Positions 33,672 through 42,571 of a stretch of DNA of 64,000 nt are shown one piece after another. Numbering within the stretch: position 1 is the first letter of the stretch; every line of letters begins with the position of its first letter. The notes under the pieces were generated by a model, which did no database searches, was not told the origin of the DNA, and was given only the letters and a program-made list of their open reading frames with translations. This DNA comes from Escherichia phage dhabil, in the sequence record MN850621.1. One strand, given 5' to 3'. The translations under genes were made by a program, and so were the position numbers.

Positions 33672-33900
33672 CGTCTCGTTTCCATGATTGGTTAAAAATG
33701 TCGCTCATTAAAATTTCAAGTCTATTTTCTAATGACGGACTTTCACTATCAGATATTTGGACCATATAATCAGAAATAGGTCGGAACATATCCAAGTCGC
33801 TTTCTAAATCTTCTTTGATTTTCTCTTCTGATGTTCCAGTGTCATAGGAATACAGATAAGAATCGCATGACTCAGATTTAATATAAATCGCAATACTCAT
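33664..33900 (-). CDS. hypothetical acidic protein
   Basis: 78 aa ORF. Confidence 0.4.
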   Translation of the reverse strand: MSIAIYIKSESCDSYLYSYDTGTSEEKIKEDLESDLDMFRPISDYMVQISDSESPSLENRLEILMSDIFNQSWKRDDE

Positions 33901-34484
33901 TTACGGCATTCCTCAATAAAAGAGTTTAATGTATTTTTCTTAGTGATATCGTCATATACCTTTTTAACTTTAGAAATACGAAAAGGTACTTCAATAACTG
34001 CAGTCCATAAAAATGATGCGATAAGTCCTAAGATAGCCGCAGACATCGCTGAAGCAAATAGCGTAATAGGCAGGTCATTATCCGTTGTCAGGAAAAACCC
34101 TAGGAGTGGGAAAAATAATATCCCCATCCAAACATAGAACCTAGAACTCACCAATTTGTCGTATTCATCACTCCATGTACGGAAGCCGTATTTTTTGCTA
34201 TAACAAATCAATGGGTCCGGCGTCTGTTCTTTATGGGGTTCCGGTTGCCAACCATTTACGATATAGCCCATTTTATATTCCTCAATTAAAAGTTGTTTCA
34301 TTTCAGCAGTACATCCTGACCAATCTACTGTACTGGCTGAAATTCCTTCATCAGCATCATCAATATTTCGCCAGGACTTTTTAATAATCATATTCTCACC
34401 ATTTGGGATAATGATTCCGGCATTTTCAGACCGACGGATGAAGTTTACATCAACACCCATGCAACCAGGTTCATAAAGGGCCAT
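33897..34484 (-). CDS. hypothetical membrane-anchored protein
   Basis: 195 aa; C-terminal hydrophobic segments. Confidence 0.45.
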   Translation of the reverse strand: MALYEPGCMGVDVNFIRRSENAGIIIPNGENMIIKKSWRNIDDADEGISASTVDWSGCTAEMKQLLIEEYKMGYIVNGWQPEPHKEQTPDPLICYSKKYGFRTWSDEYDKLVSSRFYVWMGILFFPLLGFFLTTDNDLPITLFASAMSAAILGLIASFLWTAVIEVPFRISKVKKVYDDITKKNTLNSFIEECRK

Positions 34485-35170
34485 TACCAGCCCTCCATAG
34501 GGAATTCCAGATATACTTGAGCATTAACGCGGATTTCATTTGTAATCTTTTTAACACGGTCGGTATTACGAGACACACGACCAAACCAGCGCCATCCGTT
34601 ACTTACTGCACGGGAACCTGTATGCCATGTCTGCCAATCAAACTGGAGCAATGTACGGTCAGGAGCATCCCACTTGGTTAATTCATTAGACTCAATTTTT
34701 TCCAGAACTTCTTTATGCCACTGGCGATAGATAAGTTCGCCATCAGGAATCTGGCTAAATTGTGCAGTTCCGGTTGCAAAATAAGTAGGACACACATCAG
34801 CGTTAACAAGACCAAGAATATGTTCAGAATGGTATCGAGGGTTATCATAATCAGGTTGCCCTGCAGTAATAAAGTGTTGACCAACCGGAATATCCGGGCG
34901 TGGTACATCATCATGGTGATAACCTGGGATAGCAGGATACCAACCAGGCATCAGCATATGAACCCGAGAATCAAATACAACCTGGTCGGTGTTCCAATCA
35001 TCCGGCAGACTCATTATAAAGCTACGAGTAATAGGGCCACCATTATCAAAAGCGAAAGCCAATGAGCTGTTGAAGAACATAGTTTCGTTTTTGATTTTAT
35101 CGTTAGAAATTTTACCAGCGAAACCGCCTACTGCACGAGCTTGAGAATTAAAAGTTTTTGGGCTGTTCAT
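34484..35170 (-). CDS. hypothetical protein, possible 2OG-Fe(II) oxygenase fold
   Basis: H85-x-D87, H183 and R198-x-S200 spaced as in 2OG-Fe(II) oxygenases; weak, motif-spacing only. Confidence 0.35.
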   Translation of the reverse strand: MNSPKTFNSQARAVGGFAGKISNDKIKNETMFFNSSLAFAFDNGGPITRSFIMSLPDDWNTDQVVFDSRVHMLMPGWYPAIPGYHHDDVPRPDIPVGQHFITAGQPDYDNPRYHSEHILGLVNADVCPTYFATGTAQFSQIPDGELIYRQWHKEVLEKIESNELTKWDAPDRTLLQFDWQTWHTGSRAVSNGWRWFGRVSRNTDRVKKITNEIRVNAQVYLEFPMEGW

Positions 35171-35180
35171 AATATTTTCC

Positions 35181-35411
35181 TCAGAAGCAAGTATTAACTT
35201 TACCAGTTGTGCTTACACATGTGTTACCGAGCTGAACACCTAAAGTACCATTAGGATTCATATGGAGATTATTACCGATCTTAACCGATGTACCATCTTT
35301 ACTGACAACGATTGAGGATTCAACTTGTGTTTCGTCTCCAACATCAACAATAAAAGGAACTGCAGCTAAAGCAACCAAGCTCAGGGCTAAAACACTCATG
35401 ATGGCTTTCAT
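35181..35411 (-). CDS. small secreted protein
   Basis: ATG (MKAIMS…) with signal peptide; GGAGAATAAA SD; promoter cassette upstream. Confidence 0.5.
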   Translation of the reverse strand: MKAIMSVLALSLVALAAVPFIVDVGDETQVESSIVVSKDGTSVKIGNNLHMNPNGTLGVQLGNTCVSTTGKVNTCF

Positions 35412-35767: not shown

Positions 35768-36727
35768 TTATTTTTCGAAAGGACGAATTAAATGTTGATT
35801 ACGCTTAAACCGGTTGATGTAGTCACTTTCACCTAGGGTCCTATACATATTCACTACAGCTTGGTAGTTTTCCCAGGCATACTCACGGAACCAACCTGAA
35901 GTGATTGAGGTGCACACTTTCTCAAGAGCCATATAGAAACTTGTGGCCGCTGGGATATTAAAGTCATTAGGAACCTGCGAACGCTCTAGAGCAAGTACAC
36001 ATGCTTCTTCATAAACCCCTGCCAGTTTAATAGCTTCAGGCAAAGCTTCAAACTTCTCACGAGAGGTCATGACTTCAGAACCATCTTTCATATAAAAGGT
36101 ATACGCTGGGCGTCCGGCTAATGCCACAGCTTCATGAATAGAGTCGTGGTCTAATGTATAGATGGTATCATTAAAGAACGATGATTTGTTTACATCTAAT
36201 TTAGGATGAGAATAGCTCAACGTTTCTTTCTGACGTTGCAGCATGATTTCTTGGAGCTCTTCATTCAAGGTTACACCTTTATTACGAAGGTATTTGATGT
36301 GGGACATCGTCTTCAAAAAGAAAGGGTTGTTCTTCAAATAACGATGGCTCATTTTGATGGCCAGACAGATATCAGGCGTGGCCCAATAGAAACCCGTCAT
36401 CCGATCTTTCTTAATATGTGTTTTAGCATAATTCAGAAGGCGGTAGCTTGAGGTGAAATCCTCATCTTGGAGTTCGCCGGTAATTTCACGTACGTTAGTC
36501 AAGGCGCGGACGATATAAGCTTCAAAATAGGTTTCTTTACCGTTGTGCATGCATTTAAAAGCCTGGACGTCAGGGTTGTCTACGTGTACATGGGCGCCAA
36601 ACATCTGTGCTTTAAAATTATTCCATGACCCCTGGTCGGCAATAAAATCCCAATCAGAATTTTCGATATACTTACTTTCAATCAGACCAGCGTGGTGCAG
36701 TGCACGAGAACCAATAACTAGCATCAT
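35768..36727 (-). CDS. hypothetical protein
   Basis: 319 aa ORF, no motif recognised. Confidence 0.55.
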   Translation of the reverse strand: MMLVIGSRALHHAGLIESKYIENSDWDFIADQGSWNNFKAQMFGAHVHVDNPDVQAFKCMHNGKETYFEAYIVRALTNVREITGELQDEDFTSSYRLLNYAKTHIKKDRMTGFYWATPDICLAIKMSHRYLKNNPFFLKTMSHIKYLRNKGVTLNEELQEIMLQRQKETLSYSHPKLDVNKSSFFNDTIYTLDHDSIHEAVALAGRPAYTFYMKDGSEVMTSREKFEALPEAIKLAGVYEEACVLALERSQVPNDFNIPAATSFYMALEKVCTSITSGWFREYAWENYQAVVNMYRTLGESDYINRFKRNQHLIRPFEK

Positions 36728-36929
36728 AATATTTTCCTCATTAATAAAGACGAGTTACTTCATATTTACCCAGTTCAGATTTTTTTGCTTCAATACGCGT
36801 TGCGGCTAGATTAGCAGCCTCTAGTGAAGAAAATTGGACCACTTGGGAAGTATTCTGCCTTACGCCACCTTGTGGGTGAGTAACAAAAACAATAAGAACA
36901 TTATACATAATATTTTCCTCAGAGTAAAC

Positions 36930-41479: not shown

Positions 41480-42103
41480 TTATTTACGAGTCTTTTCGAA
41501 CTGAGCTGCGTCACCGGCCAGTCGGCGTGCTTGACGAAGTTTGTTGTCAATTTCTTCGCGCATAGGCTGGGTGTACTTAAGGCCTTCAACCGTCAGATAG
41601 AGACGATAAAGGTCTGGTGTGTCCAGGTTGTTAATGTGTTGACCGTTACGAAGAACATTGAATTCACGAACAAGGTGTTTAGTTTCGGATTCTATTTCAG
41701 AAACCAAAGAAGCCAGTTGGTTATATTTTTTAACAATAGTGCTGGTGTCGAACTTGATTTTAGGTTTAGGAGCTTCTTTTACAGGCTCTGCTTTAGGTGC
41801 TGCCGCAGGTTTAGGTGGTGCAACTTTGGTTGGGGCTGCAGGTTTAGCAACAGGAGCTTTAGCTGGTTTAGCAGGTTTAGTAGCGCCACCGGCTACGATA
41901 TCTTTAAAAGCTTTGGAAGCTTTGTAATATTCTTTCTGGTTACTAGTATCAAAACCATACATATCATAAACGTTTTTAAAGAACTCGGTAGTGGTTTTAG
42001 TCCCGGAAATTTTATCATAAGCAGCTTGCCACATATCTTTAGTCATGCGCACGCTGGCTTCAGTCAGAACGCTTTCGTTCAAAAATTCATTGTAAGTTTT
42101 CAT
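41480..42103 (-). CDS. capsid internal protein (IPIII-like)
   Basis: N-terminus MKTYNEFLNESVLTEA matches the T4 internal-protein capsid targeting sequence; Pro/Ala/Lys-rich linker; late promoter upstream. Confidence 0.6.
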   Translation of the reverse strand: MKTYNEFLNESVLTEASVRMTKDMWQAAYDKISGTKTTTEFFKNVYDMYGFDTSNQKEYYKASKAFKDIVAGGATKPAKPAKAPVAKPAAPTKVAPPKPAAAPKAEPVKEAPKPKIKFDTSTIVKKYNQLASLVSEIESETKHLVREFNVLRNGQHINNLDTPDLYRLYLTVEGLKYTQPMREEIDNKLRQARRLAGDAAQFEKTRK

Positions 42104-42132
42104 TATTGTTTCCTGTGTTAATTAACTTATCT

Positions 42133-42338: not shown

Positions 42339-42414
42339 TGGTCGAGACAGTAGGGATCGAACCTACGACCCAGGACTTAGAAGGTCCTTGCTCTTCCTTC
42401 TGAGCTATGCCTCG
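42339..42414 (-). tRNA. tRNA-Arg (anticodon TCT)
   Basis: Hand-folded cloverleaf: acceptor CGAGGCA/TGTCTCG, D-arm GCTC/GAGC, anticodon stem AGGAC/GTCCT with loop CTTCTAA, T-arm GTAGG-TTCGATC-CCTAC, CCA encoded. Confidence 0.8.
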
Positions 42415-42418
42415 TATT

Positions 42419-42493
42419 TGGCGGACATGCATGGATTCGAACCATGGACCAATTGATTAACAGTCAACTGCTCTACCACTGAGCTACACATCC
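42419..42493 (-). tRNA. tRNA-Asn (anticodon GTT)
   Basis: Hand-folded: D-arm GCTC-AGTGGTA-GAGC, anticodon loop CTGTTAA, T-arm CATGG-TTCGAAT-CCATG, CCA encoded; acceptor stem has two G-T pairs. Confidence 0.7.
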
Positions 42494-42497
42494 AAAT

Positions 42498-42571
42498 TGG
42501 TGGCCCTGGGTGGAATCGAACCACCATCCAGCGATTATGAGTCGCTCGCTTGACCGTCCAGCTACAGGGCC
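42498..42571 (-). tRNA. tRNA with CAT anticodon (Met, or Ile if lysidine-modified)
   Basis: Hand-folded: acceptor GGCCCTG/CAGGGCC, anticodon stem AGCGA/TCGCT with loop CTCATAA, T-arm GGTGG-TTCGATT-CCACC, CCA encoded. Confidence 0.75.

Follow-up and report, generated by a model that had tools for sequence, protein, structure and literature searches.

The 64,000-nucleotide stretch of Escherichia phage dhabil DNA analysed here (MN850621.1; hereafter the window) carries a gene for a 228-amino-acid (aa) protein that, according to our analysis, is very probably a member of the Fe(II)/2-oxoglutarate (2OG) oxygenase superfamily. The fuller statement, which includes a small molecule as the substrate, is the one that we favour with moderate confidence. 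A first-pass annotation made from the sequence had proposed a 2OG-Fe(II) oxygenase because of the order and spacing of H85-x-D87, H183 and R198-x-S200, and this core claim is now supported by fold models, by the register of an alignment with EctD and by conservation across the family. The same annotation had the coordinates and length of the open reading frame (ORF) right and gave no strand; its 228 codons, from ATG to TAA, are read from the minus strand, and translation of the plus strand meets many stops. The protein has the same sequence (100% identity) as the product of the coding sequence (CDS) dhaeg_140 of Escherichia phage dhaeg (MN850609.1; genus Dhakavirus, Tevenvirinae), which is annotated as 'hypothetical protein', VOG2420. 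It also gave a full-length match to phrog_1843, a group listed with function unknown (E 1.4e-93, with residues 1-228 aligned to all 222 profile positions, 1-222).

Indexing of the translation and the DNA showed that H85, D87, H183, R198 and S200 are indeed where the first-pass annotation had put them (Table 1), with H85 and D87 inside a family motif P-x-I-P-G-W-H-x-D. The motif alone is weak evidence, because the pattern H-x-[DE]..(60-140)..H..(8-20)..R-x-[ST] turned up in 7.8% of 20,000 composition-preserving shuffles of the protein; in the single sequence it is not convincingly beyond chance, whereas across the family it is. Among 120 representatives clustered at 50% identity, whose identity to the query is 23-54%, just six columns showed no variation, L73, H85, D87, H183, R194 and R198, and position 200 was S or T in 108. 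By residue type this corresponds to two of eight histidines, one of 17 aspartates and two of 13 arginines. Four of the five residues originally named thus fall in six invariant columns of 228 (hypergeometric P about 7e-7 by our own arithmetic), and in a separate alignment of 91 sequences H85, D87, H183, R194 and R198 were among 19 invariant columns. Other positions were near-invariant, namely R91 (118/120), R214 (117/120), D67, P106, T129, Y148, Y220 and the terminal Gly-Trp. The proposal that R198-x-S200 binds 2OG is plausible; it had missed R194, equally invariant and 11 residues after the distal histidine, which is at least as good a candidate as R198 for the ligand of the 2OG C5 carboxylate.

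Four relatives of 418-462 aa (P0284, P0327, P0352 and P0377; none of them in the window) are tandem fusions, and they separate these residues from the rest of the protein. When aligned to the family hidden Markov model, the N-terminal copies of all four keep H85, D87, H183, R194 and R198, and the C-terminal copies have lost both histidines and at least one of the arginines while fold markers such as G44-G45 and W193 are kept. With the fold markers kept where residues of this set are lost, the five residues act as a single functional group that can be uncoupled from the fold, the behaviour expected of a catalytic and cofactor site, and the C-terminal copy looks from its residues like a pseudo-enzyme domain joined to an active one. 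The conserved Gly-Trp is present in the fusions only at the true C-terminus, and this free chain end possibly folds into the active site or an interface. Additionally, among phages that are otherwise close, the gene is split in Aeromonas phage 65 (143 + 86 aa) and truncated in Aeromonas phages 44RR2.8t.2 and L9-6 (73 aa) and in Escherichia phage a20 (residues 165-228 only), and the 73-aa C-terminal fragment has a separate PHROG, phrog_23363. The gene appears to be dispensable and to decay often.

Structure prediction, which the first-pass annotation had named as one check on its assignment, gave confident AlphaFold2 (AF2) models of the protein and of a distant homolog, and both match almost only double-stranded beta-helix Fe(II)/2OG dioxygenases. 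The model of the 228-aa protein, built on the 91-sequence alignment, had a predicted local distance difference test score (pLDDT) of 90.9 and a predicted template modelling (TM) score of 0.88; a loop near residues 91-110 was modelled less well. A Foldseek search of the PDB with this model returned 21 matches at E<1e-3, all of them Fe(II)/2OG dioxygenases, including HygX, ColD, proline hydroxylase H11, EvdO2, SptF and GriE; EctD, MysH, HalB and ThoJ followed further down among the 50 listed matches, where the cupin-like YjgK was the single exception. Since the structural matches of this first model were distant, a second model was built for the mycobacteriophage homolog P0121 (about 30% identical; AF2 pLDDT 93.9). 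Its four PDB matches at E<1e-3 were again all Fe/2OG oxygenases, and its matches were largely the enzymes already named, including GriE, ColD, EvdO2/AviO1/HygX, H11, SadA, TauD/AtsK, KanJ and proline 3-hydroxylase. As the TM-scores are low, the case for the fold rests on this near-uniform list of matches and on its replication. In both searches YjgK of Salmonella (PDB 9jrr), a small cupin-like protein that is not an oxygenase, recurred at E ~1.7e-3, and picornavirus-like capsid jelly-rolls were found at low probability in the search with the P0121 model.

In the model of the 228-aa protein, DSSP assigned eight strands in the canonical order. With strands numbered by order alone, the second is irregular and carries H-x-D, the seventh carries H183, and the eighth R194, R198 and S200; strands 129-138 and 165-168, by this count the probable fourth and fifth, are connected by a helix (147-160) with loops. 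An irregular second strand and an extended connection between the fourth and fifth strands have been described as traits of the PhyH family in the EctD structure paper (PMC2871039). The model predicts a double-stranded beta-helix core for the protein.

A profile-profile comparison pointed to the same residues. The EctD/PhyH reference consisted of S. alaskensis EctD as seed (verified as PDB 4MHR/4Q5O), 27 EctD homologs taken from the best 120 hits, and V. salexigens EctD; it is a narrow profile (76-93% identity), and all its homologs carry PF05721. A single hhalign alignment of the family with this reference placed W-H85-x-D87 on W-H144-S-D146 and H183 on H245. H144, D146 and H245 are the published iron ligands of EctD (PMC5924519), equivalent to H146, D148 and H248 in the V. 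salexigens enzyme (PMC2871039). The proposed iron ligands are therefore in register with those of EctD at a marginal score, and the link between the two sequences is suggestive only, in a register that agrees with the structural assignment.

The candidate cofactor site resembles two known groups of enzymes in different respects. PhyH-like enzymes have His-x-Ser at the distal histidine and an arginine at His+11, and IPNS/DAOCS-type enzymes hold the C5 carboxylate of 2OG through an Arg-x-Ser in the last strand of the barrel (PMC2871039). In the family described here R194 is invariant at H183+11, as R259 is at H248+11 in V. salexigens EctD, and the invariant R198 is followed in most representatives by S or T at position 200, which makes the Arg-x-Ser of the second group. 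The 2OG site looks hybrid, with the His+11 arginine and R-x-S/T together and no His-x-Ser. On this strand, residues 194, 196, 198 and 200 should all point to one side, and the C5 carboxylate is predicted from these residues to be anchored by R194 and/or R198 with S200.

The PhyH-like enzymes (EctD 4Q5O/3EMR, GriE 5NCI, H11 7DT0, HygX/EvdO2/AviO1, ColD and SadA) were the best structural matches for the two models. They share with the family the H-x-D...H order, the arginine at the distal His+11 (R194 compared to R259/R256 of EctD), the irregular second strand carrying H-x-D, an N-terminal helical/strand extension and, if numbering by strand order holds, an insertion separating strands four and five. 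In contrast to them, none of the 120 members has a significant PF05721 match, His-x-Gly/Ala stands in place of His-x-Ser, the family has the extra invariant R198-x-S/T and the conserved Gly-Trp chain end, and the protein is 228 aa long rather than about 245-306. As in IPNS/DAOCS (2OG-FeII_Oxy), Arg-x-Ser lies on the last barrel strand, and its spacing of His+15/+17 equals that of what we take to be H243/R258/S260 in DAOCS. Between the fourth and fifth strands, where these enzymes have a short loop, the model of the 228-aa protein appears to carry a long insertion; furthermore, PF03171 (2OG-FeII_Oxy) gave no Pfam match and no IPNS/DAOCS/ANS-type structure was among the listed matches. AlkB-type enzymes have the same superfamily chemistry and the same H-x-D...H...R logic, but the family is acidic rather than basic, it has no Pfam match to the AlkB family (2OG-FeII_Oxy_2), and no AlkB structure was among the 50 listed matches of either model. 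The PhyH-domain/2OG-Fe(II) oxygenase genes of T4-like cyanophages also encode small (about 180-240 aa), stand-alone proteins of speculative function (PMC3037559). They belong to a different family, however: unlike the dhaeg_140 family, these are recognised by domain databases, and they matched the 228-aa model with Foldseek E values of 2e-3 to 1e-2 and TM of 0.27-0.37; the dhaeg_140 family, unlike the cyanophage set, spans enterobacterial, Aeromonas, actinobacterial and T7-like phages. All in all, the family resembles PhyH-type small-molecule hydroxylases but lacks both a match to the PF05721 model and the His-x-Ser, and it shares R-x-S with IPNS/DAOCS enzymes, to which it has no structural resemblance. 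The most fitting description is that of a family of its own in the Fe(II)/2OG oxygenase superfamily, uncurated so far and carried mainly by phages.

Homologs were found by tblastn in 471 phage records, with identities of 70-100% in T4-like phages of Escherichia, Aeromonas, Klebsiella and others, ~34% in Vequintavirinae and ~30% in phages of Mycobacterium and Gordonia, and the family is present in phages of Proteobacteria, Actinobacteria and Firmicutes. An exhaustive search by profile over 1.84 billion representatives recovered 1034 clusters (50% level) at E<=1e-3, 724 of them at E<=1e-10, and in ~185,000 species genomes only 26 loci, scattered over many phyla, fit the family motif pattern. Almost all public records are named 'hypothetical protein'. 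Some Aeromonas-phage orthologs carry the automatic UniProt name 'Phytanoyl-CoA dioxygenase family protein' and one mycobacterial prophage record the name 'oxidoreductase', so the superfamily assignment is not wholly new, and we found no paper in the literature that characterises the dhaeg_140 family. In addition, two close homologs, XAO54413.1 of Yersinia phage vB_YenM_P8 and P0113 of Escherichia phage vB_EcoM_005, are called 'baseplate hub subunit' and 'tail sheath monomer', which are evidently annotation errors.

We also analysed the genomic surroundings of the family, using 80 IMG/VR loci and other contigs. A target ORF could be called in 86 of 97 loci and the targets were grouped into 32 lineages; about 1060 neighbour ORFs from the 86 loci were clustered, and the four nearest ORFs were scanned in all lineages. 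In raw counts, the neighbours that recurred most within 4 kb were T7-type DNA polymerase, encoded in seven lineages, primase-helicase in six, RNA polymerase in four, RNA ligase in three and DNA ligase in two. No conserved partner emerged, since no Pfam family occurred in more than three of the 32 lineages among the four nearest ORFs (DnaB_C, 3; NAPRTase, 2; NUDIX, 2; exoribonuclease, 2; RtcB, 1; NADAR, 1). Contigs of unrelated phages, one of which encodes an SPP1-type portal, carry homologs 60-73% identical to the 228-aa protein and have none of dhaeg's neighbours. The gene is a single-gene cassette, apparently dispensable and horizontally mobile, that tends to land in early nucleic-acid-metabolism regions.

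Several results weigh against the reading of the protein as a 2OG oxygenase acting on a small molecule. The structural matches are distant, with TM-scores of 0.3-0.45, below the usual 0.5 rule of thumb for a shared fold, root-mean-square deviations of 6-9 Å or more and Foldseek E values of ~1e-4. Pfam and NCBIfam gave no match for the 228-aa protein or four distant homologs, Pfam on the 120 representatives gave nothing significant (the best PhyH match, E 0.05, was in one member), and PDB sequences queried with the protein alone and with two family profiles yielded no real match, the output, where there was any, being isopentenyl-diphosphate isomerase (E 0.02) or designed pentapeptide-repeat proteins. 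The hhalign link to EctD is marginal (E 0.016, probability 2.9%), and six of 200 column-shuffled references reached the observed score. The PhyH-type His-x-Ser is absent, position 185 being G in 76, A in 36 and S in three of the 120 representatives. As for the substrate, no partner or context that would specify it was found among the four nearest ORFs of the 32 lineages, and the genomic setting of replication genes, RNA ligases and exoribonucleases suits a nucleic-acid substrate equally well.

The reading that we favour is that of a soluble non-haem Fe(II)/2OG-dependent dioxygenase with a double-stranded beta-helix fold. Fe(II) would be held by H85, D87 and H183, and 2OG would chelate the iron, with its C5 carboxylate on the last strand. 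As in the superfamily generally, oxidative decarboxylation of 2OG to succinate and CO2 would yield an Fe(IV)-oxo species, which would oxidise, most likely hydroxylate, the substrate. The enzyme would be expressed from the leftward, probably early/middle, gene block of the T4-like phage, would act alone with no dedicated partner and would serve a dispensable host-takeover or auxiliary-metabolism function. Its substrate would most likely be a diffusible, anionic, broadly conserved cellular metabolite, probably of amino-acid or nucleotide type. A small molecule is favoured because free amino acids, ectoine or natural products are the substrates of the closest enzymes of solved structure, because the family is mildly acidic (median isoelectric point (pI) 6.1, only 14% above 7.5) and because the near-invariant R91 and R214, by their conservation, could bind an anionic substrate. 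A halogenase was also considered and ruled out, as D87, the carboxylate ligand of H-x-D, is invariant.

The same chemistry could be directed at nucleic acids, in an AlkB-like repair enzyme or a base or ribose hydroxylase that would modify DNA or RNA, such as tRNA, during infection, and the first-pass annotation had suggested such roles as well as protein hydroxylation. The neighbourhoods lend themselves to this, with T7-type DNA polymerase, primase-helicase and RNA polymerase each encoded no more than 4 kb away in 4-7 of the 32 lineages, a PF09414 RNA ligase near the gene in three IMG/VR lineages and in locus L006, RtcB near it in two actinophages, exoribonucleases and NUDIX proteins among the nearest ORFs, and nudE, e and denV downstream in the window. 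Nevertheless, no single nucleic-acid enzyme is a steady neighbour (at most three of 32 lineages among the nearest ORFs, raw counts), the median pI of 6.1 is acidic to neutral, there is no Pfam match to 2OG-FeII_Oxy_2 or a related model, and no AlkB, TET/JBP or other nucleic-acid oxygenase was among the 50 listed matches of either model. We consider a nucleic-acid substrate unlikely, and together with the absence of JmjC enzymes from the same lists this leaves the originally suggested repair, base-hydroxylation and protein-hydroxylation roles with no specific support.

A protein substrate, either a conserved host protein such as a translation factor or ribosomal protein or a protein of the phage, seems to us rather improbable. 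Bacterial 2OG oxygenases that modify proteins are known, such as the EF-Tu prolyl hydroxylase and the ribosomal oxygenases; the peptide-acting ThoJ was among the structural matches, and a conserved target would explain the spread over phages of three bacterial phyla. On the other hand, P4H/PHD prolyl hydroxylases and JmjC-type enzymes were not among the listed matches, the proline hydroxylases that did match act on free proline, and no conserved partner gene was found.

More speculatively, the family, with its hybrid cofactor site and a C-terminal Gly-Trp that would be obligatory, could be a phage-specific lineage of 2OG oxygenases that oxidatively inactivates or rewrites a conserved host molecule limiting infection and that spread horizontally for that reason, the candidate targets being a nucleotide-derived immune signal, toxin-damaged or modified RNA, or a stress metabolite. 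We regard this proposal, targets included, as doubtful; if true, it would represent a new type of oxidative counter-defence or host-takeover enzyme. Neighbouring RNA ligases, RtcB, exoribonucleases, NUDIX and NAD-salvage proteins fit accessory islands of this kind without proving them. The PADLOC anti-phage defence models gave no match at E<=1 for the 228-aa protein and two distant homologs, and we found no paper tying a phage PhyH-type protein to anti-defence.

The protein could also be a cupin or jelly-roll with other metal chemistry, or a non-catalytic binding protein. The lack of a significant sequence match to any 2OG-oxygenase model, the low TM-scores, and the appearance of YjgK in both fold searches and of capsid jelly-rolls in one of them are in line with such a protein. 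Against it, all PDB matches at E<1e-3 were Fe/2OG oxygenases for the two models (21 of 21 and 4 of 4), the invariant residues are an H-x-D...H triad plus two arginines on the last strand, which is the hallmark of 2OG binding, and the triad and arginine residues are lost together in the degenerate fusion copies. Such a protein is therefore quite improbable.

Still less probable, in our view, is an enzyme that mainly consumes 2OG, converting it to succinate in an uncoupled or loosely coupled reaction and so shifting the central metabolism of the host. Sullivan et al. (2010) proposed that the PhyH-domain proteins of T4-like cyanophages convert 2OG to succinate (PMC3037559). The absence of a substrate-specifying partner or context in our data is compatible with a similar role, but the many near-invariant residues beyond the cofactor ligands (D67, R91, P106, T129, Y148, R214, Y220 and Gly-Trp) imply a defined substrate pocket. 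Uncoupled turnover, moreover, usually inactivates 2OG oxygenases. Lastly, a chance motif in a protein unrelated to metal enzymes, for which only the occurrence of the bare pattern in shuffled sequences speaks, has in effect been disproved by the conservation of precisely these residues throughout the family; the fold evidence also speaks against it, and its probability is negligible.

In the window, the gene belongs to a long minus-strand block with homologs of nudE, e (lysozyme), denV, regB, vs and tk, the first three of them just downstream of it. From what is known of T4, we take this block to be the prereplicative (early/middle) region. A search of T4 confined to the syntenic interval from e to the tRNA genes showed no homolog of the gene. 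The positions of the gene, of its predicted functional residues and of the adjoining signals are collected in Table 1.

Table 1. Coordinates in the window of the 228-aa protein gene, its candidate functional codons and adjacent features.
Feature	Position	Strand	Basis and remarks
CDS of the 228-aa protein (dhaeg_140; phrog_1843; VOG2420)	34484..35170	-	ORF list, translation; TAA at 34484-34486 included
Codons H85-H86-D87, with the proximal His and the Asp ligand of a predicted iron site (2-His-1-carboxylate)	34910..34918	-	Invariance; alignment with EctD H144/D146; H85 at 34916-34918 and D87 at 34910-34912 (translation and DNA indexed)
Codon H183, predicted distal His ligand of the iron, on barrel strand seven (model strand 182-185)	34622..34624	-	Invariance; alignment with EctD H245; DSSP
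Codons R194-W-F-G-R198-V-S200 on the eighth strand (model strand 192-201), predicted 2OG C5-carboxylate site	34571..34591	-	Conservation; probable same-face geometry from i, i+4, i+6 spacing; R198 at 34577-34579 and S200 at 34571-34573
Codons G227-W228, exact chain end	34487..34492	-	G in 114/120, W in 116/120, always the last two residues
Shine-Dalgarno-like GAGGA	35178..35182	-	7 nt 5' of the ATG at 35168-35170; read from the sequence
TAATG, overlap of the oxygenase-gene stop and the downstream ORF start	34482..34486	-	Sequence, ORF list
Downstream 195-aa membrane-protein ORF (phrog_2203)	33897..34484	-	ORF list, PHROG match

The Shine-Dalgarno-like GAGGA overlaps the stop codon of an upstream 83-aa ORF. 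At the other end of the gene, the TAATG overlap suggests translational coupling with the 195-aa ORF in this phage. The product of that ORF has a hydrophobic C-terminal region and belongs to phrog_2203, 'membrane protein', in the moron/host-takeover category; the pairing was not kept in the other lineages sampled, that is, outside this phage group. Local promoters and terminators were not more numerous than expected from shuffled sequence. A promoter-like TTTACT-17 nt-TATAAT with 10 of 12 matches lies at 36900-36928 (-), upstream of the ORF block that holds the oxygenase gene, in a region where the total number of promoter-like sites was likewise not above the shuffled expectation.

Some surroundings of the homologs deserve mention. 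RNA ligases, either RtcB or PF09414 Rnl-type, are encoded within a few kb of a homolog in four or five lineages by raw proximity, the loci being L002 (Mycobacterium phage Bongo), L004 (Gordonia phage WilliamBoone), L006/L007 and L032/L034/L035/L037/L052, sometimes together with an exoribonuclease, NUDIX or MazG protein. These neighbourhoods are suggestive of RNA-repair or counter-defence islands and are inconsistent across lineages; as a consistent association, the proximity of RNA ligase, RtcB or NUDIX genes was not upheld across the 32 lineages. In L005 (Pseudoalteromonas phage H101) and L060 the homolog adjoins two NAD-salvage genes, one for a nicotinamide/nicotinate phosphoribosyltransferase and one from a family of 286-aa ORFs whose annotation in L005 is ribose-phosphate pyrophosphokinase. 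Two large contigs, of 696 kb (L013) and 828 kb (L012), carry the homolog beside a TerD/TerC cluster and type II secretion/pilus genes, respectively; because these contigs are probably cellular, the homolog is not confined to recognisable phage contexts.

Three further features of the window are worth recording. The 319-aa ORF at 35768-36727 (-), two genes upstream, matches DUF7277 and DUF7275 (E 1.5e-27 and 2.4e-78) and phrog_2141, and encodes a conserved phage protein of unknown function. The tRNA cluster at 42339-42571 (-) comprises only Arg(TCT), Asn(GTT) and Met(CAT), compared to eight tRNAs, segB and two small RNAs in T4, and the e-to-tRNA interval, which holds many additional small ORFs, spans about 9 kb, the T4 interval being about 4 kb long. 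Two ORFs on opposite strands overlap almost fully, 41480-42103 (-; 207 aa) and 41531-42121 (+; 196 aa), and it is likely that at most one of them is a real gene.

Our analysis adds to the existing database labels the family-wide conservation, the replicated fold result, the hybrid cofactor site, the picture of a mobile gene and the absence of a partner. A curated model of the family would correct the annotation in hundreds of phage records, and the hybrid 2OG site and the terminal Gly-Trp are small structural curiosities for enzymologists. The general picture would not change unless the substrate proves unusual. For the 2OG oxygenases of cyanophages, themselves still unexplained, the family also supplies a counterpart from outside the marine setting. 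It is large, with its 1034 representatives, and is found in hundreds of sequenced phages that include T4-like coliphages of the type used in therapy, Aeromonas, Klebsiella and T7-like phages and mycobacterial prophages, and the Fe(II)/2OG assignment gives these 'hypothetical' genes a testable chemistry and defined residues to mutate.

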